64,000 nt of DNA from a virus, in IMG/VR virus record IMGVR_UViG_3300042516_003202; one strand, written 5' to 3'. Positions 30,366 to 60,822 of this stretch are shown here, in pieces. The notes beneath the pieces were generated by a model. The model was given only the letters and a program-made list of their open reading frames with translations, was not told where the DNA came from and did no database searches. Positions within the stretch are counted from its first letter, which is position 1, and each line of letters starts with the position of its first letter. A program made the translations under genes and the position numbers.

Positions 30366-30461
30366 TGGGGGCGGTGCTGGTGTGCTCTGGTGAAGGGGTG
30401 GAGGCAAAGGGGAAGGGCAGAGCCCCTCCGCTGTGCCACCTAGCGGGTTGGCACAGCCCGA

Positions 30462-30611
30462 TCAGAAGTCGATGGCGTTGAGTGTAGGTTCTGCACCATA
30501 CTCATCACATTCGTCAACACTATCCCCCAGAACAATAGAGTCAAGAATTTGGAGGATTTGGTCGCCGTTGTTGCCAGAGCGGAGGAGAGAAAGCGCAAGG
30601 TCGCGGGTCAT
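30462..30611 (-). CDS. conserved cyanophage small protein (49 aa)
   Basis: manual translation MTRDLALSLLRSGNNGDQILQILDSI.. Confidence 0.8.
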   Translation of the reverse strand: MTRDLALSLLRSGNNGDQILQILDSIVLGDSVDECDEYGAEPTLNAIDF

Positions 30612-30668
30612 CGTAGTTTTGAAATTAGGGTTACTGGGTGTCTTTAAGGGCGCACCCGTTCCCGTTGA

Positions 30669-30830
30669 TCAGCGTTCCAGTTGTGCCAGCGAACTGGGGG
30701 CGATGTGAGAAGGCGAACCGCAGGAGCGATAGAACTCAACCATGCGATCTGCCTCCTCTTTAGTGTTGAACCACTGGGAGCGCCACTCACACTGATTATA
30801 GGGGGTTTGGTAGCGAACTTCGAAGCGCAT
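30669..30830 (-). CDS. conserved cyanophage small protein (53 aa)
   Basis: manual translation MRFEVRYQTPYNQCEWRSQWF..FYRSCGSP. Confidence 0.8.
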   Translation of the reverse strand: MRFEVRYQTPYNQCEWRSQWFNTKEEADRMVEFYRSCGSPSHIAPSSLAQLER

Positions 30831-30896
30831 GAGGTTTGGGTGGTGAACTTGTACAGTGTAGCACGTGGTGGGGGGCAGGAGCGCCCCCCGTGAGGA

Positions 30897-31163
30897 TCAG
30901 AGACCGAATACGTCGGCGTTGATCTCTGCTCGGTTGATCTCAGGATCGTTCCACATCACACCATCAGGAGTTTGCTTGCTGCCACAGTCATAGAGCACTT
31001 CGATGAGATCCTCATAACAGCAAACGTCACCGTTTTTGATCGTGTTGTAGACACCCTCATCGTTGTTGATGTAGAGTGCAACATTCCAGGTCTTGTAGTT
31101 AGTCCAGTCGCCGTAAGCAACATCCAGCAGGTTGGTCTGGTGAGTGCGGGTTGCGGTTGCCAT
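30897..31163 (-). CDS. conserved phage protein (WTNYxTWNV family)
   Basis: WTNYKTWNVALYINNDEGVY..TPDGV.W motifs. Confidence 0.8.
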   Translation of the reverse strand: MATATRTHQTNLLDVAYGDWTNYKTWNVALYINNDEGVYNTIKNGDVCCYEDLIEVLYDCGSKQTPDGVMWNDPEINRAEINADVFGL

Positions 31164-31228
31164 GGGGTTCGGTGTTGAACTTGTTCAGTGTAGCACGTGG
31201 TGGGGGGCAGGAGCGCCCCCCAGGGGGA

Positions 31229-31408
31229 TCAGATGGCGCTGGTGCCCTTGCTCACCCAGAGTGCCAGGCGCATGGTGCTTGCCTTGCTCACCTGCTTCAC
31301 GGTGCGCCCGTGTGCCAGGGCAGCAGTCTTCAGGCAGGTGCGCTTGGCGTCCTCATTGCCCACCAGGATCAGGCGAGCGTACTGGAGCAGTTGCTGTTGG
31401 GTTGCCAT
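31229..31408 (-). CDS. early small protein (59 aa)
   Basis: manual translation MATQQQLLQYARLILVGNE..; cassette context. Confidence 0.72.
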   Translation of the reverse strand: MATQQQLLQYARLILVGNEDAKRTCLKTAALAHGRTVKQVSKASTMRLALWVSKGTSAI

Positions 31409-31475
31409 GGTCGGTTCGGGTGTTGAACGTGTTCAGTATAGCATGGGTTGGGGGCGCCCAGCGCCCCCAGGGGGA

Positions 31476-31652
31476 TCAGTCTTCAGGTCCGAAGCAGCAC
31501 TCCAGGGAGAATGCTTCCAGTTCCTGGTCGTCGTCCCAACCGTAGAGGTCCCAACCTGGGCCCTCCTCCTCATCACACACGGCGTTCCAGTCATCCTCAG
31601 TGGGCACGAACTGCTCGTCGATCTGAGCGTAGTCGGTGAAGGCGTAGGTCAT
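31476..31652 (-). CDS. acidic small protein (58 aa), N-terminal paralog of 26988-27230
   Basis: manual translation MTYAFTDYAQIDEQFVPTEDDWNAV.. Confidence 0.75.
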   Translation of the reverse strand: MTYAFTDYAQIDEQFVPTEDDWNAVCDEEEGPGWDLYGWDDDQELEAFSLECCFGPED

Positions 31653-31727
31653 GGGGTGGATCCCTCAAGAACAAACGTAGTATGGCATGGGGGTGGGGGG
31701 CGTTTCAACCCCCCGTGTGCCAGTTGA

Positions 31728-31967
31728 TCAGGCGGCGATCACCTGCAGTTGCTCGCTGCGGATCGCGGTGTTGATGAAGCGCCCCACGGATTCGCCCTGT
31801 GCGATAGTGTCATTCACTTGTGCAACAAACTGTTCAACATCAGCAACACCGTAGGTATAGTCACGCCCACCGTTGAAGGTGATGGTCACTTGCCCACTGT
31901 TGCTGTTTTGATCAGTCTTTGCAGCAGTCATGTTCTCGATGGCGCTGGATTCGAATTTGGTAAACAT
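31728..31967 (-). CDS. KTSC-like domain protein
   Basis: ESSAIEN..VTITFNGGRDYTY.V..ESVGRFINTAIR. Confidence 0.6.
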   Translation of the reverse strand: MFTKFESSAIENMTAAKTDQNSNSGQVTITFNGGRDYTYGVADVEQFVAQVNDTIAQGESVGRFINTAIRSEQLQVIAA

Positions 31968-32100
31968 AATTAAAAAAAAGTAAAGGGTTTGAGTGAAGTG
32001 TTTTGAGCGGGATGCTTCACCCCCGCTGATGTGATCAGTATGGCACGGGTTGGGGGTGGGGTCAACCCCCTGTGTGCCACCTTGCCAACTGGTCTACCGC

Positions 32101-32283
32101 TCAGTTTGTATACACTACGTCTGCGTAGTTGTTGTCTAGCATCGCTGCAGCGTAGAGTTTAGGATTGAGATGATAATAGCCGCTGTTCAGTTCAATCCAG
32201 AACGCAGGCATTTCATTCTCACGCCACCAGTAAAGTGCGTCTTTGAAACTATCGAATCCGCAGTTGAGTAGAGCGAACATCAA
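32101..32283 (-). CDS. hypothetical protein
   Basis: 60-aa ORF with ATGA overlap to upstream gene. Confidence 0.6.
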   Translation of the reverse strand: MMFALLNCGFDSFKDALYWWRENEMPAFWIELNSGYYHLNPKLYAAAMLDNNYADVVYTN

Positions 32284-32453
32284 CCCTCCAGCAGTTCGGG
32301 ATAGTATTCCTTAACCTCCTCGGTCAATTCTTCATCCGAATACTTGTCATAACCCTCGCTCAGGTAGTCGTAGCAGAGCATGGTCATCGTCTTGAGGTCC
32401 ATGTCATCCAGCATCTGCTGGATGAGTTGCTCCTGGAGTTCAGTGCGGTTCAT
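32280..32453 (-). CDS. conserved cyanophage small acidic protein (57 aa)
   Basis: manual translation MNRTELQEQLIQQMLDDMDLK..YYPELLEG. Confidence 0.75.
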   Translation of the reverse strand: MNRTELQEQLIQQMLDDMDLKTMTMLCYDYLSEGYDKYSDEELTEEVKEYYPELLEG

Positions 32454-32605
32454 TTCAGAAGTTGGGTGAAGTTGTCGACGATAATTTGGCAGGCAAGATC
32501 TTGAACCTCAGAGAGGTAATCTGCCTCACCGAACTGTGACTCTAGCAGGGAGATCAGATCCTCTTGGATTTGTTCACGAACTGAAATAATGTCAGTTTGG
32601 GTCAT
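32450..32605 (-). CDS. small acidic protein (51 aa)
   Basis: manual translation MTQTDIISVREQIQEDLI..ACQIIVDNF; overlapping start/stop. Confidence 0.7.
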   Translation of the reverse strand: MTQTDIISVREQIQEDLISLLESQFGEADYLSEVQDLACQIIVDNFTQLLK

Positions 32606-32871
32606 CAGTTTGCGTAGATGGACATGTTTTTACGCATACGAATGTAGTCATCAATCATCTCACCAACTTGTTCGTAAATGTAGGAAGAACCGCCTACATC
32701 ACAGAGAACATCTTCAGTGAGAACTTTAGAGAAACGCACTTCATTATCGTTAGCATCGAACTCAAAAACATCCTCTCCAGTATATACAAACGCAGCACAA
32801 CCTGCGTCCTCACCTTGTTGCTCAATCAGTTTGTCGATTGAGTTACGAAGTTCAGAAAGAGTGCGGTACAT
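32605..32871 (-). CDS. conserved cyanophage hypothetical protein
   Basis: MYRTLSELRNSIDKLIEQQGEDAGCAAFVYTGEDV. Confidence 0.75.
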   Translation of the reverse strand: MYRTLSELRNSIDKLIEQQGEDAGCAAFVYTGEDVFEFDANDNEVRFSKVLTEDVLCDVGGSSYIYEQVGEMIDDYIRMRKNMSIYAN

Positions 32872-33181: not shown

Positions 33182-33183
33182 GA

Positions 33184-33312
33184 TCAGTAGTCGTAGTTGC
33201 TGTTAAGAAACTGGTTGAAGGATTGCTCCTCGTTGTCATCCTCCTCATAGAGATCTTCAATGTCATAGATCTCACCAGGAGCATCTTGAATCTCAAGCAG
33301 ATAGGTGTCCAT
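33184..33312 (-). CDS. small very acidic protein (42 aa)
   Basis: manual translation MDTYLLEIQDAPGEIYDIEDLYEEDD..; follows palindrome-type promoter. Confidence 0.7.
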   Translation of the reverse strand: MDTYLLEIQDAPGEIYDIEDLYEEDDNEEQSFNQFLNSNYDY

Positions 33313-33379
33313 GGGTTTGGTGGTGAACTTGTTCAGTATAGGGGGTGTGTGGGGCGCTGGGCGCCCCGTGTGTGCCGCT

Positions 33380-33715
33380 TTACTGATTGGTCAGGGCACC
33401 CTGCTCGTTGAGCACACCCCAGGCAATGCCGCTGCTATACAAACCGATGTAGCGGTTGCCAACACTCAACCCAACGATTTCATCGCCTGGTTCACCGATA
33501 AAGTTGACACCAAGGTAGAAGAATTGGGTGATCATTTCAGGGGTTTGGAACTTCATGGTCTGGATCTTCTCCCAGAGGATAGTAGCAACAACGTAAATCA
33601 CTGCTGCCACGGTGAGAACAACAGTCCGCACGTTGGCATAGAGTTTCTGATAATCAACCTGCGCAAGGAAGGCGATCAGGTCGTCGGTGGGGGGGAAGGA
33701 TTTGGTGAGGTTCAT
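33380..33715 (-). CDS. membrane-anchored hypothetical protein
   Basis: MNLTKSFPPTDDL.. with hydrophobic VVLTVAAVIYVVATIL segment. Confidence 0.7.
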   Translation of the reverse strand: MNLTKSFPPTDDLIAFLAQVDYQKLYANVRTVVLTVAAVIYVVATILWEKIQTMKFQTPEMITQFFYLGVNFIGEPGDEIVGLSVGNRYIGLYSSGIAWGVLNEQGALTNQ

Positions 33716-34199: not shown

Positions 34200-34284
34200 T
34201 AGGAGCAGGGAGACTTGAACTCCCACGGGCGTTATGCCCAACAGATTTTAAGTCTGGTGTGTCTACCGATTCCACCATGCTCCC
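34200..34284 (-). tRNA. trnL-UAA: tRNA-Leu(UAA), intronless, CCA not encoded
   Basis: GGGAGCA/TGCTCCT acceptor, GGTAGAC D-loop, CT-TAA-AA anticodon loop, long variable arm, GGGAG-TTCAAGT-CTCCC T-arm. Confidence 0.95.
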
Positions 34285-34294
34285 TTATGTGTAT

Positions 34295-34432: not shown

Positions 34433-34903
34433 TTACCAATGTTTGTCAAACACGAACCCGTCCACGAACTCGTAGTCATAACGAAGTCCCTGGTCCCAGG
34501 TTGCTTGCCAATCAACTACAACGAACGCAGGAATGTCCAGTGCATAGCAGTCAGTGGTAGTCTGCTCTGCAAAGTCTGCCTCCGATTGATAATGCCCCCG
34601 ATAGGCATCTCCAAAGTACTCCAGATCACTTTCTTCCCAGATAGACAAGAATGCTTCTACAGCATCCTGACTATACAAACCACACAGGCGATCGTAGATT
34701 TCCTGATACTCCTCGGAGATTTCAGGTTCGGGGACCTTAGTCAGCAAACCCTTTGCATTCAACAGTTCTACGTAGAACATGGTGAACTTGAGTTTGCCGT
34801 CGATCTCATAACCACATGCCCGAACGATATCAGACATCTTGGCAGGCGGTTCTTGTGCCTGCATTTCAGTCACTTTAGAAACGAGAGCGGTGCCAGTCAG
34901 CAT
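34433..34903 (-). CDS. cyanophage AbrB-like N-terminal domain fused to ArdA-like antirestriction domain
   Basis: MLTGTAL..IVRACGY..FTMFYVELLNAKG (cyAbrB-like) + DAYRGHYQSEADFAE..VDWQATW..YDY..GFVF (ArdA-like, acidic). Confidence 0.65.
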   Translation of the reverse strand: MLTGTALVSKVTEMQAQEPPAKMSDIVRACGYEIDGKLKFTMFYVELLNAKGLLTKVPEPEISEEYQEIYDRLCGLYSQDAVEAFLSIWEESDLEYFGDAYRGHYQSEADFAEQTTTDCYALDIPAFVVVDWQATWDQGLRYDYEFVDGFVFDKHW

Positions 34904-34983
34904 GGGGATGTCCCTCAGGTACGAATGTAATGTAGCAGGGTTTGAGGTGCTTGTAAAGCACCGAGGTGCCAGTTCAGAAGGCG

Positions 34984-35154
34984 TCACACATCATAGCAGA
35001 TGTTGGCACGCTTCATCTCACCATACCATGCCATGTTAACGTCGTCCATGATGGACTTGAGAGACATGCAGAAATTAGCATGTTCTGCCTGGGAATTCAT
35101 GAGTTCCGTGCGGTGCTCATGACGCTCAACGATCTTGGTGTTGTAGTAGTTCAT
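34984..35154 (-). CDS. early small protein (56 aa)
   Basis: manual translation MNYYNTKIVERHEHRTELM..; palindrome-type promoter upstream. Confidence 0.7.
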   Translation of the reverse strand: MNYYNTKIVERHEHRTELMNSQAEHANFCMSLKSIMDDVNMAWYGEMKRANICYDV

Positions 35155-35221
35155 GGGGGTGTTTCAGGAACGAATGTAATGTAGCAGGGTGCTGGGTAGA
35201 AGTCCAGCACCCTTGTGCCAG

Positions 35222-35377
35222 TTAGTTCACTGCCACACGCTCATAGTCCACATAGGCATGTGGAAACATTTCACTGTACTCATCCACAAGATCTTCTGCA
35301 TGTTCCTTTGTTTTTGAAACGGACAGGAGTTTGCGACCACTAATTTCATCCCAGGAAAGCATGAAAACGTGATACAT
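35222..35377 (-). CDS. early small protein (51 aa)
   Basis: MYHVFMLSWDE..YSEMFPHAYVDY; palindrome-type promoter upstream. Confidence 0.72.
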   Translation of the reverse strand: MYHVFMLSWDEISGRKLLSVSKTKEHAEDLVDEYSEMFPHAYVDYERVAVN

Positions 35378-35448
35378 CGGAGAATTCCTCAGGAACGAAT
35401 GTAATATAACCCCCCAGCACCAGAAGCGCAAGGGGGGTTGGTCCAGTC

Positions 35449-35653
35449 TCACACCTGGCACAATTGCACAAGGCGGTTGCGAATATCAAACAACTCCATC
35501 TCATCCATATCTGCAGAATCAAGATCTACAGGGGCAAATTCTTCAAGATTAATATTGCCATCAGAATAGATGGGAGCATAGTACAACTCATCGCCATCTT
35601 CCTGGGAGAGAGTGTATACACAACCGTGATCAGGGTAGGTGATGAAAATCATG
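35449..35653 (-). CDS. early small acidic protein
   Basis: MIFITYPDHGCVYTLSQEDGDELYYAPI..; start placed downstream of the TATGTT -10 at 35677-35682. Confidence 0.7.
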
Positions 35654-35712
35654 GTGCCGTGGTGTTGAACGAAACCAACATAACGCCGATTTGGGGTGCT
35701 TTGGGGCAACAT

Positions 35713-35736
35713 TAGACCAGTTCACAAAGCGGCACA
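35713..35736. promoter_or_regulatory. 24-bp palindromic site shared by divergent promoters
   Basis: TAGACCAGT-N6-AGCGGCACA; -10 boxes exactly 30 bp away on both sides (TATGTT minus 35677-35682; TATCTT plus 35767-35772). Confidence 0.7.
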
Positions 35737-35891
35737 AGACCTGCCCCAGGTGGCAGGGTGCTGTGGTATCTTATAAGGACAATCAGATGAGGGGAGGGGT
35801 ATCCCTGTGGACGACAATACATCGCCACTTTCCCTGCCTTGAAATAATTATATAACGCTACTGTTATACCATTATAGCATATTATAATGAT

Positions 35892-35915
35892 TGTGCCAGT
35901 ATAAGAACTGGCACA
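35892..35915. repeat. perfect copy of the 24-bp palindrome TGTGCCAGT-ATAAGA-ACTGGCACA
   Basis: perfect 9-bp inverted repeat; 15 degenerate copies elsewhere (30432-60606). Confidence 0.9.
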
Positions 35916-36798: not shown

Positions 36799-37548
36799 AT
36801 GGCAAGGGGTATTATCTACCTAATCACAAACAAAGAGAATGGATTAAAGTACGTGGGAAGCACTCTCTTACCCATGAACAAAGAATGGCAGGCACACATT
36901 CAATCAGCAAACAAAATGTCTCCTGAACCATTACACAGAGCATTTCGTCAATATGGAATACATCGTTTTACAATACAAGAACTAGATGAATGTGATGAAA
37001 GAGAATTGAATGAGAAAAGAGAACAGTGGATAAGACACTATGACTCTTATAATGGAGAGAACTATAACTATCGTGTCTTTGAAGAAGAAGAAGATGATGA
37101 AGAAGATTTAGTACCTATCATACCAGAAACAATTAATAAACCAAAGTATAGGCATACATTTAACAATCAAGATCGTAAAAACATTAAACGTACTGGACAT
37201 AAAGTACAAGGTAAGCATCTTGAAACTGGTGAGATCAAGATATGGGAATCGGCAGCACTAGCAGCAGAAGAAGTGACAGGTAATGCAAGAAAGAATTCAA
37301 ATATAATGACTTGTGCCCGTAACTGTTATAGATGTTATGGATATAAATGGTCAGTTGTTGAAGAACATAATAAGAAAAGATCTGTGTTTGGCATACACAA
37401 AAAAACGGAGAGATTAGGTCCCCGTTATGAGAGTATTACTGAAGCAATGAAAGCACTACGTGGCAATAGTGCTGGATTAGGTTTAATTAAAAGTTTGAAA
37501 CATCCTGGGCGATATAGTTATAGAGGATTCTATTGGTATTATGGTTGA
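36799..37548 (+). CDS. GIY-YIG family protein with two NUMOD1/IENR1-like DNA-binding repeats (possibly inactive)
   Basis: GIIYLITN..KYVGST, RAFRQYG..FTI, NYN; C-terminal WESAALAAEEV..CYGYKW and YESITEAMKAL..YRGFYW. Confidence 0.8.
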   Translation: MARGIIYLITNKENGLKYVGSTLLPMNKEWQAHIQSANKMSPEPLHRAFRQYGIHRFTIQELDECDERELNEKREQWIRHYDSYNGENYNYRVFEEEEDDEEDLVPIIPETINKPKYRHTFNNQDRKNIKRTGHKVQGKHLETGEIKIWESAALAAEEVTGNARKNSNIMTCARNCYRCYGYKWSVVEEHNKKRSVFGIHKKTERLGPRYESITEAMKALRGNSAGLGLIKSLKHPGRYSYRGFYWYYG

Positions 37549-37793: not shown

Positions 37794-37794
37794 G

Positions 37795-42726: not shown

Positions 42727-42885
42727 TCAGTTTTCGGGGTAGAGTTTCCAACCATCAGGGTAAATACCCATTTCTTCGCAACGCACTTCATAGGCAATAC
42801 GTTGCAGGAAACGCAGATCCATCTCCTCAACTGCTTTCACAATAGAGCGGCGGATCTGCTTGTCTTGAATGGTGTCTGTGATCAT
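42727..42885 (-). CDS. conserved small protein (52 aa)
   Basis: manual translation MITDTIQDKQIRRSIVKAVEEMDLR..; palindrome-type promoter upstream. Confidence 0.7.
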   Translation of the reverse strand: MITDTIQDKQIRRSIVKAVEEMDLRFLQRIAYEVRCEEMGIYPDGWKLYPEN

Positions 42886-43003
42886 CGGGTGTTCCCTTGA
42901 TTACCTTGTAATTATACTGCCTGCAGCAGGCGGTTGGGTAACACCTGTGCCACTTATAGCACTGTCATATGATGTGCTATATAAAAAAACAAAGATTTTA
43001 TTC

Positions 43004-44241: not shown

Positions 44242-44685
44242 TCACTTCGCATAAAGATAACTACCTGCCCAATCAGCATTCTTAAACAACCATTCACGTT
44301 CTTCAATCAAACGCAGATCATAGCGAACACCTTTGGCAGGTGCTTTCCAACTAGCAGATTTGTATACTTCACCAGTTTTTTGATCTACGAAGGCATGAAC
44401 AGAGCGAGAACCATTACTATCAATAAAGACAATTTTGTGGTACTTGCGTCCAGACTCAAGGATGAAATCAACTGGGCATTCGTTGTTCTTGAGTTCATCA
44501 ATCTTACGTTGATGATACTCTTTAGTTTCAAGATCATCAACAAACTTTTGATGTCCACGGATGGCATACTCAACGTAATTGTGCTTGAGTGCCTCACAAA
44601 GAGCATAGGTATGCCTCAGAACAGCGTCAGCGATGCTCTGCCGTGCCTGTTCTTGGGCAGCGTAGTCAGCGAAGGTGGTGCTCAT
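44242..44685 (-). CDS. conserved phage protein (GRKY..TGEVYKSASWKAPAK family)
   Basis: motif match; palindrome-type promoter upstream. Confidence 0.8.
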   Translation of the reverse strand: MSTTFADYAAQEQARQSIADAVLRHTYALCEALKHNYVEYAIRGHQKFVDDLETKEYHQRKIDELKNNECPVDFILESGRKYHKIVFIDSNGSRSVHAFVDQKTGEVYKSASWKAPAKGVRYDLRLIEEREWLFKNADWAGSYLYAK

Positions 44686-44772
44686 GGGTGTGTTGTGTAT
44701 GTACCTATTATAAAGGCACACAGGTGCTTGTGGAGTGCCTGTGTGCCAGTTGATAAAGTGGTATAAAAATGT

Positions 44773-44985
44773 TTAACCTTCTTCTAAATCGCCAATTTCA
44801 TTTTCAGTTAAAAATGCGGACTTTGAAATTGGATCCCAGATATAAGAATATGTATCTTGTGGATCTTCCTCAATATCCTCACAATACCTTACAGAAAAAT
44901 AATCTAGTTTGTTGGAAACATTCTTTAGATAGAAATCTACAACATCTTGTCCATATTCTTGAATAAGAAATTCCTTTTCAGTCAT
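44773..44985 (-). CDS. hypothetical protein
   Basis: MTEKEFLIQEYG..; start placed downstream of the -10 at 45015-45020. Confidence 0.6.
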   Translation of the reverse strand: MTEKEFLIQEYGQDVVDFYLKNVSNKLDYFSVRYCEDIEEDPQDTYSYIWDPISKSAFLTENEIGDLEEG

Positions 44986-45070
44986 GGATTTACTTTTGAG
45001 TGTCAACAACATTCAGTATAAAGCAAAAATTGATCCTTGAGTGGGCAAGTGTGCCAGTTTGATAAGTGTC

Positions 45071-46972
45071 TCATTTACCAACTTTTAAGGTGACTGCAGA
45101 TTGAATATCATCCAAGTATGCCTTACCCCTAGCCATTCTTGAACTTGAGAGAAGCAAATACCCTCTACCAGATGCTGCAGAGTGCATACTCATAACTATT
45201 TTCTTTTTAACCAATTCTTTAATATTAGATTGATTTGCAGAGATAAAAAATAAAAATTCAAGATTTAATAAAAGATTTCTAAATTGATCAAAATTTCTAT
45301 CCGATATAACATCACCACCTTTTCTCTGTTTTATCAATTTATACTTATCTTTTATTTTTTTTGTTAAAGTTTTTGGTATTTCCTTTTCTATTAAAAAATC
45401 AGCATATTTGAATAAAAATTTTGTTTTATTTGGTTTAGTTTTTAAAGAGGTAATAATTTTTAAATAATCATCTTTTGTCAAAAGACCAACTTTTCTCATA
45501 ATTTGTTTTGCTACAGAATTTTCATCATCAATTTCGTTCAAAATACTAATACGATTTTTTATTAAATCATTATAAGCTTTATTGAAAGATGTCCGATAAC
45601 TGGGATGATTGGTCATTTCATTAAAAACATTTAAAGTTACTTGCCCCTCACCAGTCTGCGAAGTTGTTTCTGATGGTCCCCCTTGTTTACCAGGTTTTAT
45701 CAGTACTGATCCACTACCAGGCAATAATTCAATAAAGTAATTCAAGTGTTTAATTTTTTTATCTGGTTTTTTTATTTCATATGTAAAATTAAAGTATTGA
45801 GTAGTAAGATTTAATTTATAATCATTGGGTGTTAAGTTTTCTATTGAAATTAACTCATTCAAATATTTTTCAAATACCGCCTTATTTTTTGACAATTGCA
45901 TTAAAAATCTTACTTCACTTAAAAACCAATCATCATCTTCTTTATTTTCGTGCAAATAAACTGAATTATAATTTAATATTGAAAATGGTGTATTACTATC
46001 CTTAACCTGCTTCAAACTAACTGGAAACATTATTTTTGAACGATATAATTGAGTTATTATCTCCAAATAATGTCTTGGATTTAGAAGTTTATTATCCCCC
46101 ATCATTTTTACTTTTTGATTTATTAACGTCTTAATGTTTTTGACTTGATTTTTTTTTACCAAGTAAATGTCCGCAGTCGATAACTTGTTAGATTCACTAA
46201 AAAATCTTTTACCAAGACTTTTTTGGTAATTTTCCATCATAGTAAAACAACGATTTTTATCTTGTTTAGAATTATTTTTTATAAAATCAACAAAATTAGA
46301 AGACTCATGATGATATTCGTATAATTTACCATCGTTGCCACATTTTTCTATAATTTTCTTTGCACTATAGTATGCGGAATATAACCACTCATAATATCCA
46401 TTATTATATTTTTGATCATCATAAATTGCAGACATATAAGATATTTTTTCAGTATTCAAAAATATATCTGTATATACATTAAAATTTTCTAATGTTTGAT
46501 TTGAATTCCACTTTAAAAAATACACATAATCAATAAAATCATAAAAACTGAACTTTTTCGGAATATTTTCACTACAAACAAACATGGTTACAATTTCACC
46601 AAGAATTGATAAAGTATTGTAGACAACCTGAGTTGTTTTTTGATAATTTGACAAATACTTTTTAAGAATATTCTTTATTTCATTTATATTTCCTAAAGTT
46701 GGAAGTTCTTCTTCATCTATTATAGATTTAATATTTTTTGCTAAAAAATCAATAGTAATATTTTCATTTTCTTTTCTTGAGGTTAGATCATGAAGAACTT
46801 TTGATCTGATATATACTCTTTGCCTAATAGAAAAAGAACTTTTAAATAAGTATCCAATATTATCCTCTAAAGTTTTCGACGAGAAAACATTTAAAATAGT
46901 CTTTAATTTTTCATCTGAAATTTTAGCAATATCTTTTTTTGTTATTTTTTCAAACTGACTTGGTACTATCAT
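45071..46972 (-). CDS. large AT-rich protein, possible PD-(D/E)xK nuclease-like domain
   Basis: 633 aa; NKLSTADIYLVK..MFPVSLKQ; late-type CTAAATA upstream. Confidence 0.5.
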   Translation of the reverse strand: MIVPSQFEKITKKDIAKISDEKLKTILNVFSSKTLEDNIGYLFKSSFSIRQRVYIRSKVLHDLTSRKENENITIDFLAKNIKSIIDEEELPTLGNINEIKNILKKYLSNYQKTTQVVYNTLSILGEIVTMFVCSENIPKKFSFYDFIDYVYFLKWNSNQTLENFNVYTDIFLNTEKISYMSAIYDDQKYNNGYYEWLYSAYYSAKKIIEKCGNDGKLYEYHHESSNFVDFIKNNSKQDKNRCFTMMENYQKSLGKRFFSESNKLSTADIYLVKKNQVKNIKTLINQKVKMMGDNKLLNPRHYLEIITQLYRSKIMFPVSLKQVKDSNTPFSILNYNSVYLHENKEDDDWFLSEVRFLMQLSKNKAVFEKYLNELISIENLTPNDYKLNLTTQYFNFTYEIKKPDKKIKHLNYFIELLPGSGSVLIKPGKQGGPSETTSQTGEGQVTLNVFNEMTNHPSYRTSFNKAYNDLIKNRISILNEIDDENSVAKQIMRKVGLLTKDDYLKIITSLKTKPNKTKFLFKYADFLIEKEIPKTLTKKIKDKYKLIKQRKGGDVISDRNFDQFRNLLLNLEFLFFISANQSNIKELVKKKIVMSMHSAASGRGYLLLSSSRMARGKAYLDDIQSAVTLKVGK

Positions 46973-47871: not shown

Positions 47872-48360
47872 TCAGAGTTTGAAAGGAGAAACAATGATAC
47901 GAGGTTCAACATACACAGGGCGTGTCTTACCATTACCACTTGGATCAGAACACATCACCCAAGTTCCTTCAGCACTATCAGGAGAGAACAAACCATTAGG
48001 ATCTGCTTGAGGAAGGGTTACACCACTAATTCGCTCATACTTTTGAGGATTGGTGTATTGAGTTGCAGCAGGCAAACCATAACCAATAGAGTTGCACAGA
48101 AACACTGGACGACCAGTAGTTTCAGGAACAATATAAGTATAAGTCACCAGTCCATCTTGGTCACGCATCTCAATAATTTGTTTCATCAGTTTGCGTTCAC
48201 GGAAGTTCTTGATTGCAGGCATACCAGTTTGTGCGGTGCCTTCTTGGAGGATACGTTCTTGTTGATCACGTTGTTTTTGATCGGAATTGCTAAAATCATC
48301 ACAACCAACAAGAGTTACACCCAGAAGTGCGATGGCAGCAACAGAAGCAAATGGTTTCAT
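47872..48360 (-). CDS. lipoprotein
   Basis: lipobox LVG|C; QADPNGLFSP..EGTWVMC. Confidence 0.75.
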   Translation of the reverse strand: MKPFASVAAIALLGVTLVGCDDFSNSDQKQRDQQERILQEGTAQTGMPAIKNFRERKLMKQIIEMRDQDGLVTYTYIVPETTGRPVFLCNSIGYGLPAATQYTNPQKYERISGVTLPQADPNGLFSPDSAEGTWVMCSDPSGNGKTRPVYVEPRIIVSPFKL

Positions 48361-48439
48361 GATTTGGATTGATTACTTTGTTATTATAGGATGGATTGTG
48401 GGAAGTAGGAAAGGTCTTGTGCCAGTTCTTTAAGTGTCC

Positions 48440-48979
48440 TCAACCCTTATGATTCTTATCAAAAGGTGCTTTGAAATAATGATTCGCAGCAGAATGAAAA
48501 ATCATCACACCTTCTGGATTCATAAAACCAGGAGAAGCAAGAGAACCATAATTCCAGAGACGATCCATTTCATCATCAAGAACATTTGTGCTAAACTCTC
48601 CAGTATAAAGAGTCGGAACAACATAGCAACAAGCAGGAAGATTTTCTTGATTCCAGATGCTCACATTAAACAAAGAGAATCGTTTCTCCCCTTTGGGAAG
48701 ATCATATCCTCGTTGAATTCCACTACCCCACCATTCACCATGATGACGACCAGGGCCAAGTTTCATCAGTTCATCTTTGTTTTCGGTTGCCCAACGATGA
48801 AAACCAAAGTTGTCGGACTCTGCACTCAACCAACGATTGCGACTTCCAATGAACATATCTCCATCATCAGTAATGTAGATAATTCCATTAGTTCCGTCAA
48901 TTTTTTCCGTGACCACACATTCCTTATGAAGACGGGGAATTTTAGGAAATGCAACAAATTCGGGATATATAGTGGTCAT
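48440..48979 (-). CDS. RNA ligase (Rnl2-like adenylyltransferase domain only)
   Basis: FPKIPR, TEKIDGTN (motif I), SRNR, GEWWG, FSLFN, EGVMI. Confidence 0.85.
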   Translation of the reverse strand: MTTIYPEFVAFPKIPRLHKECVVTEKIDGTNGIIYITDDGDMFIGSRNRWLSAESDNFGFHRWATENKDELMKLGPGRHHGEWWGSGIQRGYDLPKGEKRFSLFNVSIWNQENLPACCYVVPTLYTGEFSTNVLDDEMDRLWNYGSLASPGFMNPEGVMIFHSAANHYFKAPFDKNHKG

Positions 48980-50414: not shown

Positions 50415-50663
50415 TCAGTTACCAAATCGCTGTGCCCAGAGTGAATAAGAATGGTTTTTCATGTGTTCAAGCATTTCATAACGCTGCCGAATTTCAGAGT
50501 CTTCAGGAAGATCATAGATGCAGGGAATGGCAAGATCCATTCCATCAACAGCATGATTAAGAATGCTATTCAAAAGATCATGTTCTTCAACAGTAAACTC
50601 CATCGTGATGGGTTGCGTGTCGTAATAGTCTTTAATAATTTCAACAGTTTCCATAATAATCAA
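50415..50663 (-). CDS. hypothetical protein
   Basis: 82-aa ORF in operon. Confidence 0.6.
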   Translation of the reverse strand: MIIMETVEIIKDYYDTQPITMEFTVEEHDLLNSILNHAVDGMDLAIPCIYDLPEDSEIRQRYEMLEHMKNHSYSLWAQRFGN

Positions 50664-51070
50664 ACAGCAAGGGTAGCAGAAGGGATTTCAACTTGTTTTA
50701 CCATATCAGGAAAACGTCCATCATTAGTATAGCACACCCACTCACCATCTTTAGTGAAAATGTAGGAGTATTCTTCACTATCGCACAGATACTCATTCAG
50801 GTCAGCATCGTGGCGAGGAGGGCAATCTTCACCACGCTGGGAATAGTATTGAGGACCATATTCCTGTGCTTTGGTCTCACTATTCCAACGGTCTTCAGTC
50901 CAGCAAGAACTCATATCGCCACCATCAATCAGTTCAGTAGCAAGAGCACGGGTGTTGTAGTGAGTTTTCAGGATGCGACCCAACCATTCAGGATAACCAT
51001 TCCAGTGGTGGTACACAGAGAGCACAGAACCGTTCTTCAGTTCAATACCGATGCGGGAGCGAGTTGCCAT
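50660..51070 (-). CDS. conserved phage protein (MATRSRIG..HW.GYP)
   Basis: motif match; palindrome-type promoter upstream. Confidence 0.78.
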   Translation of the reverse strand: MATRSRIGIELKNGSVLSVYHHWNGYPEWLGRILKTHYNTRALATELIDGGDMSSCWTEDRWNSETKAQEYGPQYYSQRGEDCPPRHDADLNEYLCDSEEYSYIFTKDGEWVCYTNDGRFPDMVKQVEIPSATLAV

Positions 51071-51093: not shown

Positions 51094-51858
51094 TTAGTAT
51101 AGGGCATCCACAAGGGGATTGGAGGCACCTTGGACCACTTCTTCAACTGGCACAGCACTTTCTATGCGTTTCTTGGCGATCTCATAGTATTGCTGATCCA
51201 TTTCAATCCCAATAAATTTACGCCCAGTTTGAACTGCAGCAACACCAGTGGTTCCAGATCCCATTGTATTGTCTAAAACAGTTTCTCCAGGATTAGTGTA
51301 GGTTTTAATTAGATATTCCATGAGATCCACAGGTTTTTGTGTTGGATGTAATCCTTTTTCTTGTTTGAACTTTAATACAGTTTTAGGATATCTTGACCCA
51401 TCTGGATTATCTCTATGTTTTGATTGGGCACTTCCATAAACTTCACCAATTTTGCTTACATTTGAAGAAAATCCGCTGTAAGGGGTTGAGTACCACATCT
51501 GAGGATTATAGGTACATTTTTTGCGATAAAATACCAAGATATTTTCGTGAGATTTCAAAGGCATTACCTTGGAATTCATAGGATTTGTACCTTGAGGTTT
51601 TTCCCAAATCCATTCATAACGAAAGTTCTCAAGATTTGATGCTGCAAGTATAGTTGTAAATGGTTGTGCCGCAGTAAACACCATTGCACCATTTTCTTTA
51701 CAAATGCGATTGTATTGTTCCCATAACTTATCCAATGGAATAATACTATCCCACTTACAAGCAGTTGTACCATATGGAAGGTCTACCAACACCATATCTA
51801 CAGAGTTATCGGCAAGTGTTGGTAGAATTTCTAAACAATCACCCAATAACAATGTCAT
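51094..51858 (-). CDS. DNA amino-methyltransferase, beta class
   Basis: GDCLE, DLPY (motif IV), HPTQKP, VLDNTMGSGTT (motif I). Confidence 0.92.
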   Translation of the reverse strand: MTLLLGDCLEILPTLADNSVDMVLVDLPYGTTACKWDSIIPLDKLWEQYNRICKENGAMVFTAAQPFTTILAASNLENFRYEWIWEKPQGTNPMNSKVMPLKSHENILVFYRKKCTYNPQMWYSTPYSGFSSNVSKIGEVYGSAQSKHRDNPDGSRYPKTVLKFKQEKGLHPTQKPVDLMEYLIKTYTNPGETVLDNTMGSGTTGVAAVQTGRKFIGIEMDQQYYEIAKKRIESAVPVEEVVQGASNPLVDALY

Positions 51859-52423
51859 GAATTTCCTCACAAGAATCCAATTTAACAGTTGTCCAAAGTT
51901 GATCAGACATGCTCTTCTGAATTTTAGCAAAAAAATCTTCAGAAGTACATTCCCATCCCATTATTTTCCCTTTAGTATCTTTGCGAGATCCCATGGTCTC
52001 TTTCCACTCCTGTTCATGATAATTTAATTTATCTGCATCAATAACAATAAAATAGTAAATTTTATTTCCTCTTTCCCAATCACTTTTTTCACATGCAAGA
52101 CAAAATATATAATCTTCTTTTTTTACACTAAGAAATTCAAGTTTTTCTGTGATTGTTTTATGCTTTGTTAATCGTGATCCAGAAATAGTAACTACATCAT
52201 TTTCAACAAATCCACCTTTATTACTAATGCGGATTCCAGAATCTGTAGTTTGATCTACTCCACTTTTATGGTTAAAGTCTGGTTTCCAATCACTACCAAA
52301 TCCAGCATCTTTCAGTGCTTTTGAAAGAAGTTCTTCCCAATACTCTGCTTTACATTGACCACTATAAAGTTCATGATGTTTTTCAAGATAATGAGTAACA
52401 ATAGGGACAAGAGACTCAAACAT
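51839..52423 (-). CDS. putative type II restriction endonuclease
   Basis: overlaps MTase start; EYWEEL..HKSGVD..RISNKGG resembles a PD-(D/E)xK variant. Confidence 0.45.
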   Translation of the reverse strand: MFESLVPIVTHYLEKHHELYSGQCKAEYWEELLSKALKDAGFGSDWKPDFNHKSGVDQTTDSGIRISNKGGFVENDVVTISGSRLTKHKTITEKLEFLSVKKEDYIFCLACEKSDWERGNKIYYFIVIDADKLNYHEQEWKETMGSRKDTKGKIMGWECTSEDFFAKIQKSMSDQLWTTVKLDSCEEIHDIVIG

Positions 52424-52503
52424 AATTTAAGAAATATACAGTAGTATCATAAAGGCACCCCAGAAAACTAGGGTGCCTGATGTGCCAGTTTAGCAACTGT
52501 TAC

Positions 52504-52716
52504 TCAATCATCATAAACCCTACATTCAAGAGCATTAGGGTGAGCATCGCAGTACAATTCTAATGCAGTTGGATCATGATTGTCATTTGGGTGATTTTCT
52601 TTGTAGGATTTCAATGCTTCAAGTTCCTCTTCAGTGTGCCTCCGTGCCTGGGGAGAAATCATGGGATCTTCCAAAAGTTCTTCATCCTTCTGGATATGTT
52701 GGTCGATGTTTTCCAT
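52504..52716 (-). CDS. cp12: viral CP12 (Calvin-cycle inhibitor)
   Basis: ISPQARRH.EEEL..DPTALELYCDAHPNALECRVYDD. Confidence 0.93.
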   Translation of the reverse strand: MENIDQHIQKDEELLEDPMISPQARRHTEEELEALKSYKENHPNDNHDPTALELYCDAHPNALECRVYDD

Positions 52717-53400: not shown

Positions 53401-54102
53401 TCAGCATTCATCCATGCCAACTGTTTGAAATAATTTACGGAGAGTATAAGATCCATCTCCATTATCAATCCACTCAATCTGGTCACCCTCTTTAAGATTT
53501 GCTGCTTCCATCAAATCATTTGGAAAACATACGAAATATTCTCCACTAGGACCATCTACTTCCACAGGAAGTTGCCACTTTGTAACTTTATCTTTAGGGG
53601 TCTCTCTAATCCAAAATCCATCAGCAGTCATAGTCCAACCAGCAGCAATTGCTTCATCATAAGTTGCATCAAGTTTTGCTCGCTTATCATAGTATTCTGC
53701 TTCACGCAGATTATACTCACGGCACTTTTCTTTCTCCTGATCTGATGCTGCCTTTTCGCACATCGCATTCAATTCTTCTTCAGTGTATTGAAGTGCTTCC
53801 ATATCACTATGCCCCCAAGGAGGCATAGTATCATTTTCCCAAAAATCATTCCAAGATTTCTTACATTCTGGAGAAGGATCATCTTTATCGCAAGATAAAT
53901 GACCCTTTCCATTACCATTCAGAAGAGCAAGAAGTTCATAACAACGACTTGCATGTAATTTATGCATGTGGTAGTTTTCATCAACTACATTCTTAATCAC
54001 GTCATAAATCTCTTGTGGAGTTGCATTCGAAGTAGAAATAGCATCGTGCATCCACTCTTCAAGTTTTTGAAGAGAGTAATTTTTGTAGTCAAAGTCCATC
54101 AA
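53401..54102 (-). CDS. multidomain protein with C-terminal AbrB/MazE-like domain
   Basis: C-terminal LPVEVD..YFVCFPNDLMEAANLKEGDQIEWIDNGDGSYTLRK. Confidence 0.7.
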   Translation of the reverse strand: MMDFDYKNYSLQKLEEWMHDAISTSNATPQEIYDVIKNVVDENYHMHKLHASRCYELLALLNGNGKGHLSCDKDDPSPECKKSWNDFWENDTMPPWGHSDMEALQYTEEELNAMCEKAASDQEKEKCREYNLREAEYYDKRAKLDATYDEAIAAGWTMTADGFWIRETPKDKVTKWQLPVEVDGPSGEYFVCFPNDLMEAANLKEGDQIEWIDNGDGSYTLRKLFQTVGMDEC

Positions 54103-58198: not shown

Positions 58199-58383
58199 GG
58201 TTCCCAAGCGTAAGATTTTAATAGTTGATTGTCTTTTTCAAGTTGTTCAATTCGTTCATTCATCTCTTGCAGAAGTTCAATTAATGCAAGAGTATCAATC
58301 GTTTCTGTGTCTTGCCCATTCTCCATATCAATATATTGAGAATAGAAAAGTTCTTGTTTGAAGTTTCGTTTAGTCATCATCAC
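58195..58383 (-). CDS. hypothetical protein
   Basis: 62-aa ORF with overlaps. Confidence 0.6.
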   Translation of the reverse strand: MMMTKRNFKQELFYSQYIDMENGQDTETIDTLALIELLQEMNERIEQLEKDNQLLKSYAWEP

Positions 58384-58555
58384 ACATCCATTCCTTCAAA
58401 TCAATAATCTCATACCAATCAGGAGCATAATCATCATTCTTCATAACATTAATTTTGTCAGTTGCTTCCTCTTCAGTATCATAGCACGCAACCCAATCAC
58501 CCGTAGCACGGTCAGGATAATAGTTGTATCCAGCAATCAACAGATAAGTTTTCAT
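58370..58555 (-). CDS. hypothetical protein
   Basis: YLLIAG.NYYP..GDW..Y..DWYEIIDL. Confidence 0.65.
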   Translation of the reverse strand: MKTYLLIAGYNYYPDRATGDWVACYDTEEEATDKINVMKNDDYAPDWYEIIDLKEWMCDDD

Positions 58556-59361
58556 CGCAGTTTCTCCCTAATCGTTCGGATACACTCATTCCACTTATAA
58601 CTGTTAGTTTCGTGTTCTGATGGCAACCACAAACTGATTTCATCAATCAAAGTAGCAATACAAGTATCACCATCCCAATCAACACCAGTTGTGAATACAT
58701 CTGCCCACCAATCATGGATCAAATCACTCAAGGTTTGTGGTTTGGTAGAAGATGAAACCACACCTTGCTTGACTGCTTCACGGAATGCTTCTTTCAATCC
58801 ATCAGCAACTTGTTCTGGTGTTTGAGGTGTTGGTTTGTAATCAACTACACCATAACCATCATGAATTCTGATAGTTTCTTCCATTTCATTATGAACTCGT
58901 TCTCCTCGTTCTTGTGCGGTTTCTTGAAACTCTCCTACCTTATAATCCTTCTGTGCGGACTTATAACCATTTACAAAGTGCATCCAAGTTGGACTGTCCC
59001 AACATCCATCAGTAATATGAGTCGTAGGATAATTACCATAAACTCTTTTATATGCTTCTTCGCAAGGAGTTTTTGTTTTTTCCAGTTCCTTATAAAATTC
59101 CAACTTACTTTGAAGCACTTTGATTTGTGCCTCAATATCTTCAATCACAGTCATAGGAGTTTCGTATTTCACAGGTTCATTCATTTTAATGTGTAGTTGT
59201 GTTTTAGGTGTTACCGTTCCCAATCTACCAGTTCCTTCAACTTTTATGGTAGTTTCTCCACTTGGTGATGTGAATTTAAGGTCAGTCATTTTATCTTTGT
59301 TAAGAGGTCCATAAACTTGTTCCATTAGTTTTTGAAAGTCCTTATCCATATCCCAAAGCAT
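58552..59361 (-). CDS. mosaic hypothetical protein
   Basis: 269-aa ORF; start uncertain. Confidence 0.6.
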   Translation of the reverse strand: MLWDMDKDFQKLMEQVYGPLNKDKMTDLKFTSPSGETTIKVEGTGRLGTVTPKTQLHIKMNEPVKYETPMTVIEDIEAQIKVLQSKLEFYKELEKTKTPCEEAYKRVYGNYPTTHITDGCWDSPTWMHFVNGYKSAQKDYKVGEFQETAQERGERVHNEMEETIRIHDGYGVVDYKPTPQTPEQVADGLKEAFREAVKQGVVSSSTKPQTLSDLIHDWWADVFTTGVDWDGDTCIATLIDEISLWLPSEHETNSYKWNECIRTIREKLR

Positions 59362-59615
59362 TAGAGTGCCTCCAATTCATCACATACATCAAGTATAGCA
59401 CGGGCATCAAGCACCATATCTTCCACACCTTCCTCTCTACAAAACTGATAGTATTGGAGTTCTGCTACTAACTCACGGAGAATATCAGCAATAATTTTTT
59501 TGCTGTAAGGGTCAAGATAAGTGTCAAATTGTTCTACTGGTGTCATTAGTGCTTTGGAATAACCATCAACATAAGTATTCCAAATTACTTGTGCTACTTC
59601 TTTTTTGTTAGCCAT
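59361..59615 (-). CDS. hypothetical protein
   Basis: 84-aa ORF in operon. Confidence 0.62.
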   Translation of the reverse strand: MANKKEVAQVIWNTYVDGYSKALMTPVEQFDTYLDPYSKKIIADILRELVAELQYYQFCREEGVEDMVLDARAILDVCDELEAL

Positions 59616-59835
59616 TTTCTTTCATCACAGGATGCTCGTATTCTACACCAATTTGTTCTAAAAGTGTGCGGGCAAAGGTAATCTCACCGTAATCAGCACC
59701 TACCTCAAAGGCAACATCACCATTAGTATAATCATTTGGATTGAAATCATCACCATACTTATTGTAACAGTGCTTCATCTCTGCGTATTTTTTGAGAACT
59801 CCAAGAAGAAGTGTGAGTTTTTGTTCGTCAGTCAT
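59608..59835 (-). CDS. hypothetical protein
   Basis: 75-aa ORF in operon. Confidence 0.62.
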   Translation of the reverse strand: MTDEQKLTLLLGVLKKYAEMKHCYNKYGDDFNPNDYTNGDVAFEVGADYGEITFARTLLEQIGVEYEHPVMKENG

Positions 59836-60014
59836 TCTTCATCCTCATCAAAACCACCAACACCAATATCTACAAAGGTAGAACCATCAACGTCCTCAAA
59901 AAGTTGGAAGTCAAAATCACCTTGATAAAAGTTATACCTGTATCCATCAGTAATTCTTACTTCTTGGTCAAGTGGAAACTCTTTGAGTTTTTCAATAAAT
60001 TCAGCAACAGTCAT
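59832..60014 (-). CDS. hypothetical protein
   Basis: MTVAEFIEKLKEFP.D.EV. Confidence 0.62.
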   Translation of the reverse strand: MTVAEFIEKLKEFPLDQEVRITDGYRYNFYQGDFDFQLFEDVDGSTFVDIGVGGFDEDEE

Positions 60015-60343
60015 TTCACCCCCAGCAAATCCTTTTCTTCGTCAGTCAAACGAGCAATCAGTTCTTTACGCTTTTGTGCTTTGATTTCTTTCTCTTGTTG
60101 TTTCACAAGCATTTCATCCAAGATACTATCCATTGTGCAGAAATCATAATCTCCTCCACTCTTCCAATCAGATCGTCCTTCATTGTCAATAAAAACAGTG
60201 TTATTAGACCATTTGCCATCATCGTGCCAATCATTACGCAGAGTGATTTTATAACCTTCATCAGTTTGACGGAAGGTTACATCACGAATAGAAAGTTTCT
60301 GTGCTTTACAGAGAAAGTCCAGTAGTTCGGTTGTAGTAATCAT
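60011..60343 (-). CDS. hypothetical protein
   Basis: 110-aa ORF, ends LTDEEKDLLGV. Confidence 0.65.
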   Translation of the reverse strand: MITTTELLDFLCKAQKLSIRDVTFRQTDEGYKITLRNDWHDDGKWSNNTVFIDNEGRSDWKSGGDYDFCTMDSILDEMLVKQQEKEIKAQKRKELIARLTDEEKDLLGVK

Positions 60344-60525
60344 TTCATTTGCTCCAAAACATCAATAAAGTGTTGAATACAATCTTTGGGAATGTGAATG
60401 GTTTGGTATCCTGGTCCATTACCATCCTCTACACTCACAGTTCCATACTCATCGGCAGTGAAATCAAAACTCCAACCATCTTCATCGTGTATAATTTTAA
60501 TGTGCTTGGTGATTGTGTAGGTCAT
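60340..60525 (-). CDS. hypothetical protein
   Basis: MTYTITK..; palindrome-type promoter at 60547-60606. Confidence 0.7.
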   Translation of the reverse strand: MTYTITKHIKIIHDEDGWSFDFTADEYGTVSVEDGNGPGYQTIHIPKDCIQHFIDVLEQMK

Positions 60526-60594
60526 CGGTTGGTTGCTTATGAGGTTATTATACGACCAAACACACCCCACCACAAGGAGGAGTGTGCCAGTTCT

Positions 60595-60822
60595 TCAAGT
60601 GTCCTCAAAATCTCTTGGTTCTTCGTATGCCTCATCGCATCCAGTAAATGCGTATTTCTTATTATTCATCTTATACCATTCGTGGTTCAAAGCATAAAAG
60701 AATGTCATCCATTCTCCGTCGTAATATGAAAGTCCTTCATTATAAGAACCAAAGACATTAGTTTCTTCTGGAACTCTCATCCAGATTTTCCAGTAATCAA
60801 AAATTAGTTTTGTGAGTTTCAT
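60595..60822 (-). CDS. hypothetical protein
   Basis: 75-aa ORF whose end overlaps the palindrome. Confidence 0.6.
   Translation of the reverse strand: MKLTKLIFDYWKIWMRVPEETNVFGSYNEGLSYYDGEWMTFFYALNHEWYKMNNKKYAFTGCDEAYEEPRDFEDT

Follow-up and report, generated by a model that had tools for sequence, protein, structure and literature searches.

The window analysed here, a stretch of 64,000 nucleotides of DNA from a T4-like cyanophage, carries 16 sites between 30.4 and 60.6 kb that conform to an inward-facing dyad with the gene-strand consensus TGTGMCAGTT-N4-AACTGKCACA, and this dyad is the upstream element of a promoter class heading small early-type genes in the T4-like cyanophages (Kyanoviridae). 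On balance it is probable that the phage element copies the Yfr2 promoter element of cyanobacteria and that a dimer of the host protein PlmA activates the early phage genes through it.

The motif is present at all 16 positions listed in a preliminary description of this DNA, and every site faces small genes on the minus strand. Half of them (8/16) show at most three mismatches over the 18 specified bases, compared with none in 100 shuffles, and the remaining eight combine a strong promoter-proximal half (AACTGGCACA) with a weaker distal half. The information content of the window sites is ~11 bits for the proximal half and ~7 bits for the distal half, in agreement with the earlier reading that the proximal half is better conserved; in the window cassettes the distal arm runs into the end of the upstream gene. 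At the K position the phage arms favour G (ACTGGCACA). A scan of the structural region of the window (1-30 kb) found no two-armed sites.

A [TC]AnnnT hexamer is located 29-31 nt past the site on the minus strand in 15 of the 16 cases, compared with a frequency of 0.07 at other offsets in the same flanks (binomial P ~7e-17), and 14 of these hexamers are convincing -10 boxes. The exceptions are the minus-strand site at 30432..30455, a palindrome in G+C-rich DNA (TGTGCCAACCCGCTAGGTGGCACA) with no -10 hexamer at 29-31 nt, and the site at 35892..35915 (assigned to neither strand), a perfect palindrome (TGTGCCAGT-ATAAGA-ACTGGCACA) lying in an A+T-rich spacer, where the hexamer counted is TAGCGT and several good TATAAT boxes sit at other offsets with none convincing at 29-31 nt. 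The preliminary count of 14 of 16 sites is therefore correct.

The other sites form cassettes on the minus strand. A GC hairpin separates the site from the -10 in those at 31679..31739 (half-degenerate site, CATACT at +31, ATG at 31652), 32037..32096 (CATACT at +30, first ORF start at 31967) and 33335..33394 (TATACT at +30, ATG at 33312). Hairpins followed by a -10 at +30 are also seen at 34929..34988 (TGn-TACATT, driving the ArdA-like ORF 34433-34903), 35178..35237 (one-mismatch palindrome, 10-bp hairpin, TACATT, ORF 34984-35154) and 35403..35462 (TATATT, ORF 35222-35377). The cassette at 35677..35736 places TATGTT at +30 ahead of ORF 35449-35652, and on the plus strand TATCTT occurs at +30. 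The -10 lies at +29 in the cassettes at 42911..42969 (hairpin, TATAAT, ORF 42727-42885), 44707..44765 (hairpin, TATAAT, DUF7717 ORF 44242-44685), 45015..45073 (site overlapping the stop of a 633-aa ORF, TATACT, ORF 44773-44985), 48383..48441 (distal arm of the GGACACTT variant, TATAAT, ORF 47872-48360), 51096..51154 (weak hairpin, TATACT, ORF 50660-51070) and 52446..52504 (11-bp hairpin then TTTATGAT, ORF 51839-52423), and the cassette at 60547..60606 has the distal arm GGACACTT and TATAAT at +30 ahead of ORF 60340-60525. The start ATG of the minus-strand ORFs is found 56-69 nt past the site, with a longer distance of 105 nt at 32073.

A canonical -35 is mostly absent, the preliminary description having called it poor in most of these promoters, and a G+C-rich hairpin occupies that space in 11 of the 16 sites. 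The distance from the site to the -10 is constant in the window and the hairpin length is variable; conservation is limited to the arms and the -10, and the spacers are unrelated in sequence. The suggestion that the site marks a separate promoter class is supported, and the two-armed site is centred near -54, close to the -55 at which binding had been placed. This location matches neither of the classic activator classes, I or II. The spacer hairpin is present in only 15% of IMG/VR cassettes and is therefore a trait of this phage and some relatives such as S-CRM01. Its probable role in this phage is to terminate or stabilise the transcript coming from upstream, which would make each unit a stop-and-start cassette. 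The genes are presumed to be early from their type and position, the gene types behind the cassettes (small ORFs, ArdA-like) being suggestive of that class.

The dyad is a two-armed protein site on DNA, as originally proposed. In the arm covariation test 65.6% of cells pair compared with a shuffle mean of 69.5%, and one cell is compensatory; the arms vary independently, which therefore indicates a protein site on DNA and not an RNA hairpin. An RNA hairpin or intrinsic terminator made by the dyad was ruled out on this lack of covariation together with the absence of a T-run after the dyad. A sigma-54 promoter (TGGCAC-N5-TTGC) was also rejected, as TGGCAC is followed by TATAAT 29-30 nt later and TTGC is absent at the required spacing; sigma-54 is not known from cyanobacteria. 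The spacing of CRP/NtcA-type sites does not match.

Other phages share the promoter unit, which recurs in Syn9, S-PM2, P-SSM2, S-CRM01, S-SRM01 and IMG/VR stretches. Sites with at most three mismatches number 3 in Syn9, 6 in S-PM2, 6 in S-SRM01, 18 in S-CRM01 and 11 in P-SSM2, with 0 for a reversed-pattern control. A matrix derived from the window only finds 9 sites in Syn9 (6 with a -10; shuffled genome, 1) and 26 in S-CRM01 (24 with a -10; shuffled genome, 0). Over 116 IMG/VR stretches contain the perfect palindrome, and TAnnnT hexamers in them peak sharply at offsets 28-31. The motif is absent from P-SSP7, Syn5, P-SS2, Ma-LMM01 and T4, a set including two T7-like cyanophages and one cyanosiphovirus. 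Convergent use by other cyanophage families was not found in unrelated cyanophages sharing hosts, and there is therefore no convergence to back a host factor. The T4 proteins MotA and AsiA are not known from T4-like cyanophages.

The degenerate palindrome gives 68 genome matches, 14 of them cyanobacterial, and in 5 of the 13 cyanobacterial loci searched the Cyano-1 sRNA starts exactly 41 nt past the site. The window-only matrix reaches 12 bits or more at 38-44 nt ahead of Yfr2 (Rfam Cyano-1) in 17 of 45 promoters phylum-wide compared with 0 of 65 control windows; among Cyanobiaceae Yfr2 promoters 11 of 28 reach at least 12 bits, 10 of these 11 at 33-40 nt. The host distance from site to sRNA start has its mode at 40-41 nt, and the phage register, composed of a 29-30-nt spacer, the 6-nt -10 box and 6-7 nt to the start, matches the host Yfr2 promoters in the position of both the -10 and the RNA start. 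An Rfam search of the window for a phage-borne Yfr2 gene finds only a tRNA.

In Lambrecht et al. 2018 (PMC6191309), PMM1637 is pulled down by the yfr2 promoter, shifts it in EMSA where the R50A mutant does not, and raises GFP from the yfr2 and yfr4 promoters; the protein is PlmA, a GntR-type regulator described there as present in all cyanobacteria and exclusive to them. The same text describes CGRE1, to which PMM1637 responds at the yfr2 promoters of marine picocyanobacteria, as an element of 21-22 nt with GTTG/GTTA flanks and repeats 13-14 nt apart, and the CGRE1 sequence, rebuilt from this verbal description and from genomes, fits AACTGKCAC-N1-2-GTGMCAGTT with outward-facing half-sites. Because the host Yfr2 genes have this site at an equal distance, PlmA is a testable candidate, and it appears to be the best candidate reader of the phage site. 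A host factor, one of the origins first suggested, is the most economical reader of the dyad, and it is supported by the element heading the Yfr2 genes in the same register and by the lack of a GntR domain in all five reference phages with the motif that were examined. The label of activator fits the published finding that PMM1637 acts positively on yfr2 promoters (PMC6191309).

The phage element reproduces the half-site sequence and register of the cyanobacterial Yfr2 upstream element. The site spans about -65 to -42, with a sigma-70-type -10, often extended (TGn), 29-30 bp further on and the -35 usually missing. In the proposed mechanism a dimer of the host GntR-family PlmA (PMM1637 in Prochlorococcus MED4), in the cell before infection, would bind both arms and recruit host RNA polymerase to these -10-only promoters, so that the genes could fire at once without a phage protein. 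Both the binding of PlmA to the phage sites and their activation by it are predicted from sequence comparison.

It is unlikely that the dyad is instead read by a phage protein, either a virion-delivered or very early activator or an early or middle protein shutting the early promoters off. Such a protein would suit the confinement of the motif to Kyanoviridae among the phages tested, with P-SSP7, Syn5, P-SS2 and Ma-LMM01 lacking it on the same hosts, as well as the G of the phage arms where many host sites have T and the lack of a family assignment for most small ORFs here. A GntR domain is found, however, in none of five reference Kyanoviridae genomes carrying the motif, and a GntR reader encoded by these phages was rejected accordingly; the candidates named from the window itself are not supported. 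The AbrB-like ORF at 25921 has no homologue in Syn9 or in S-CRM01, the latter with 18-26 sites, the ORF at 34433 resembles the antirestriction protein ArdA instead, the wHTH at 27300 has no family match and belongs to G+C-rich DNA rich in long spurious frames, and the ORF at 53401 has only a weak MazE/AbrB-type tail. The host element and its register are moreover kept even in cyanobacterial orders with no known infection by such phages, which indicates that a host reader exists anyway.

Somewhat less probable again is a host factor other than PlmA reading the inward dyad at Yfr2 promoters and in the phage. PMM1637 binding is known only for MED4 promoters (PMC6191309) with the outward-facing element, and the yfr2-promoter EMSA described there does not discriminate which half-site pair mattered. 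In the literature consulted PlmA binding beyond Prochlorococcus MED4 is undocumented, and a literature search found no published reader for the inward-facing a'-N4-a arrangement. A single dimer reading inward and outward arrangements would be unusual. Against this, the half-site sequence is identical, picocyanobacterial yfr2 promoters often carry both arrangements with the middle half-site common to both, and Prochlorococcus has very few transcription factors (PMC6778093).

Homology between the window and related phages ends at the cassettes, suggesting that recombination probably occurs within or between them. The module formed by cassette 35403..35462 and ORF 35222-35377 is missing from one relative (L021), and cassette 48383..48441 is kept in a second (L008) and absent ahead of the same gene in a third (L099). 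These breaks and this indel of gene plus cassette, the position of the site in the 3' end of the transcription unit that precedes it and the canonical hairpin-plus-T-run terminators in S-CRM01 spacers would suit repeats that are mainly recombination cassettes of the PeSL kind, or RNA hairpins terminating or processing transcripts, conserved through cassette spread, but this is very improbable given that the arms and -10 alone are conserved between unrelated spacers, that the arms pair less than shuffles and precede no T-run, that the -10 distance is fixed though hairpin length varies, and that the same site stands at single-copy host promoters.

PlmA reportedly associates with the complex of PII and PipX that signals nitrogen and energy status (PMC5083789). 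Yfr2 goes up in high light and nitrogen starvation. It is quite possible that T4-like cyanophages begin their infection programme by hijacking PlmA with copies of the Yfr2 element, that early expression is gated by the light and carbon/nitrogen state of the host and that phage sites and Yfr2 genes compete for PlmA. Were PlmA the reader, a single phage could use one programme across many hosts, and light and nitrogen signalling in the host would bear on when infection starts. The element could then also serve to mark early promoters in uncultured cyanophage contigs by sequence. A literature search found no paper joining PlmA or CGRE1 to cyanophages, and a text search for the motif brought up nothing but primers.

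Among known systems, the promoter-early stem-loop (PeSL) cassettes reportedly described in T4-type coliphages by Arbiol and colleagues in 2010 are similar in being intergenic units of a stem-loop and an early promoter that flank small hyperplastic-region genes at the borders of shuffled modules, and stem-loops with early-type promoters are found at such borders here. PeSL promoters differ in being simple sigma-70 early promoters that have a -35 box, A/T-rich UP regions and no conserved upstream dyad, whereas in the window the -35 is mostly absent and the dyad present. Doron and colleagues are said to have reported in 2016 a 'novel regulatory element' at early genes of T4-like cyanophages (Syn9, P-TIM40), an unexplained upstream element on which these genes reportedly rely and for which no reader protein is said to have been named. 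The virus family is the same, Syn9 itself has the window motif followed 28-31 nt later by a -10, and the window motif is probably this element, so the mention of such motifs at Syn9 early promoters in the preliminary description is probably right; the window motif precedes small genes of hyperplastic regions and is both abundant and conserved family-wide and in metagenomes. Naming PlmA gives the question of this element a concrete candidate reader.

CGRE1 (PMC6191309), as reconstructed, shares the 9-bp half-site AACTGKCAC / GTGMCAGTT with the phage element, both lie upstream of a -10-type promoter, and its regulator acts positively. The phage element thus has the half-site sequence of CGRE1 and not its arrangement, the reconstructed CGRE1 half-sites facing outward across 1-2 nt and those of the phage inward across 4 nt. 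The Yfr2/Cyano-1 (RF01701) promoters of Nostocales, Cyanothece and others contain the same inward dyad (tGTGmCAGTT-N4-AAcTGTCACa) with the same 29-30 nt to the -10. They differ from the phage promoters in retaining a -35-like TTGCCA or TTGTAT after the site, where the phage usually has a GC hairpin instead, and in arms that prefer T where the phage arms prefer G.

The two-armed motif with its fixed spacing to a -10 box is a real feature of the window. The pattern TGTGCCAGT-N6-ACTGGCACA gives 8 matches at ≤3 mismatches compared with 0 in 100 shuffles, and the other positions listed in the preliminary description keep a strong proximal (promoter-side) arm. Read along the gene strand, every site has a weaker distal arm, tgtGcCAgTT, followed after 4 nt by the strong proximal arm AACTGGCACA and then by 29-30 nt, a -10 hexamer, about 20 nt and ATG. 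The hexamer pattern [TC]AnnnT is found at offsets 29-31 in 15 of the 16 sites (baseline 0.07, P ~7e-17). The sites at 30432 and 35892 have no convincing -10 box at offsets 29-31, and the earlier count of a -10 box at 14 of the 16 sites is therefore right. The better conservation claimed for the promoter-proximal half is borne out by an information content of ~11 bits compared with ~7 bits for the distal arm. The upstream ORF ends with its stop codon at -7 to +25 relative to the dyad start, so that the distal arm is partly coding, which explains its weaker conservation. The structural region of the window contains zero two-armed sites.

A variant arm, GGACACTT / AAGTGTCC instead of TGTGCCAGTT / AACTGGCACA, is present in a relative's contig (L099:4860-4890), and arms of this type also form the distal arms of the window sites 45050, 48418 and 60583. 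Because the variant shares only the inner AAsTGkC with the standard arm, this segment is the conserved core. The site at 35713 has -10-like hexamers 30 nt off on both sides (window 35713-35800), a minus-strand TATGTT and a plus-strand TATCTT, and the latter would yield an antisense or divergent transcript over a 36-aa ORF.

Formation of an RNA hairpin by the dyad is ruled out, as the 65.6% of arm positions pairable across the 16 sites lies below the column-shuffle mean of 69.5%, a single compensatory change links the arms, and none of the window sites has a T-run after the dyad. The arms conserve sequence and not complementarity, and the dyad is read from these patterns as a protein site on DNA.

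The window itself is assigned from its sequence to a T4-like cyanophage, and megablast returns short matches to the Synechococcus myoviruses S-SRM01, DSL-LC03 and S-PM2. Giant minus-strand ORFs at 30% G+C occupy 1-25 kb, and small ORFs, mostly on the minus strand, follow in series from 26 kb onward. Two of the giant ORFs lie at 1-21160, one of >2281 aa (open-ended) and one of 4239 aa, and are presumably structural or fibre proteins. A 253-aa ORF without Pfam match (24950-25711), which has 72-82% DNA identity in more than 30 IMG/VR stretches bearing the perfect palindrome, looks like a conserved core gene bordering the small-gene region. A block of 57-64% G+C at 26000-32000, the rest of the phage being 28-47% G+C, holds four cassettes (dyad, spacer and -10 box ahead of a small minus-strand gene) and short patches like the marine Synechococcus myoviruses S-PM2, S-RSM4 and S-WAM2. 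The sole perfect palindrome of the window, at 35892, is flanked by a tRNA-Leu(TAA) (34200-34284, minus strand) and a GIY-YIG endonuclease-like ORF (36799-37548, plus strand).

The dyad with its -10 box is a predicted promoter type common to the phage family. IMG/VR has more than 116 stretches with the perfect palindrome, compared with about one match expected by chance for 18 specified bases, and in these stretches TAnnnT is sharply peaked at offsets 28-31. Among the matches listed, 104 distinct flanks have a -10 box, 42% of these with an extended TGn and 28% with TTG at the -35 position, a layout in which the dyad spans about -65 to -42. The search in relatives proposed earlier located the motif at ≤3 mismatches in all five reference Kyanoviridae (Syn9 3, S-PM2 6, S-SRM01 6, S-CRM01 18 and P-SSM2 11), the reversed-pattern control giving 0. 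With a matrix built from the window only, Syn9 has 9 sites and S-CRM01 has 26, of which 6 and 24, respectively, are followed by a -10 box; the shuffled genomes have 1 and 0 sites. The motif was not found in P-SSP7, Syn5, P-SS2, Ma-LMM01 or T4.

The spacers of the cassettes contain G+C-rich hairpins in 11 of 16 window sites (mean z -2.75) and in only 15% of IMG/VR cassettes, and in S-CRM01 they form canonical hairpin-plus-T-run terminators abutting the -10, so that these units probably act as combined stop-and-start cassettes. Homology blocks shared with three relatives' contigs (L099, L060 and L008) stop at cassettes, and the cassette of the gene at 47872-48360 is present in L008 and not in L099. 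In the close relative L021 a hybrid cassette combines the promoter half of 35214 with the dyad half of 35439, so that L021 lacks one gene-plus-cassette module, which is present in the window (35221-35442) and missing at L021:11813-11923 with the junction inside the cassette. Such cassette-bounded modules resemble the PeSL idea for T4-type phages.

No phage-encoded reader of the site is apparent. Three candidates named within the window are not supported: the 57-aa AbrB-like ORF at 25921 is found again in S-SRM01 and P-SSM2 and, as a weak match, in S-PM2, and Syn9 and S-CRM01 have no homologue; the supposed AbrB-like ORF at 34433-34903 instead resembles the antirestriction protein ArdA (weak match, E 2.4e-5, just short of the Pfam cut-off); and the proposed wHTH at 27300 is an ORF without family match. 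The five Kyanoviridae genomes contain no GntR domain. The ArdA-like gene is driven by the predicted promoter cassette 34965, and an early anti-defence role would fit.

The phage element also appears, by pattern and matrix matching, at host promoters of the small RNA Yfr2. TGTGMCAGT-N6-ACTGKCACA occurs in 68 stretches in 185,579 species genomes, which is near chance overall, with 14 cyanobacterial, and in 5 of 13 of these cyanobacterial loci an Rfam Cyano-1 (RF01701, Yfr2 family) sRNA starts exactly 41 nt past the dyad. Among Cyano-1 genes gathered from 151 genomes phylum-wide and 41 Cyanobiaceae, the score of the window matrix reaches ≥12 bits in 17 of the 45 phylum-wide promoters, with the site 38-44 nt ahead of the sRNA. 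It also does so in 11 of 28 Cyanobiaceae promoters, 10 of these at 33-40 nt, compared with 0 of 65 control windows. The host promoters have the site, then a -35-like TTGCCA, then a -10 at 29-30 nt.

The likely reader of the phage site would be PlmA, a GntR-family host regulator. The text of Lambrecht et al. 2018 (PMC6191309) describes recovery of the PlmA homologue PMM1637 with the MED4 yfr2 promoter as bait, shifts of the yfr2 and yfr4 promoters by PMM1637 with none for a motif-shuffled promoter or the R50A mutant, increased GFP from both promoters in E. coli, and homologues universal in cyanobacteria and absent elsewhere. Its element CGRE1 is described there as palindromic, 21-22 nt, with GTTG/GTTA flanks and repeats 13-14 nt apart (PMC6191309).

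The pattern CAACTGKCAC-N1-2-GTGMCAGTTG in picocyanobacterial promoters fits this worded description. Its half-site is the same as that of the phage, an identity that is solid at the sequence level, whereas the arms face outward in the CGRE1-type element and inward in the phage. Four nucleotides beyond the CGRE1-type element there is often a third, degenerate half-site, which restores the phage-type inward pair in its usual register; four picocyanobacterial Yfr2 promoters (L228, L236, L263 and L269) read AACTGKCAC, 1-2 nt, GTGMCAGTT, 4 nt and a degenerate AACTnCAC. In this run of three half-sites the middle one is shared by CGRE1 and the phage-type dyad, and PlmA may read either the outward or the inward pair. 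The literature search found no paper linking PlmA or CGRE1 to cyanophages; PlmA binding of the phage sites is offered as a hypothesis and the early timing of the genes as a prediction. We take the motif to be, most probably, the early-gene element reported for Syn9 (Doron 2016). Beyond that element, the analysis contributes its match with the Yfr2 promoters of the host and the hypothesis that PlmA reads the site.
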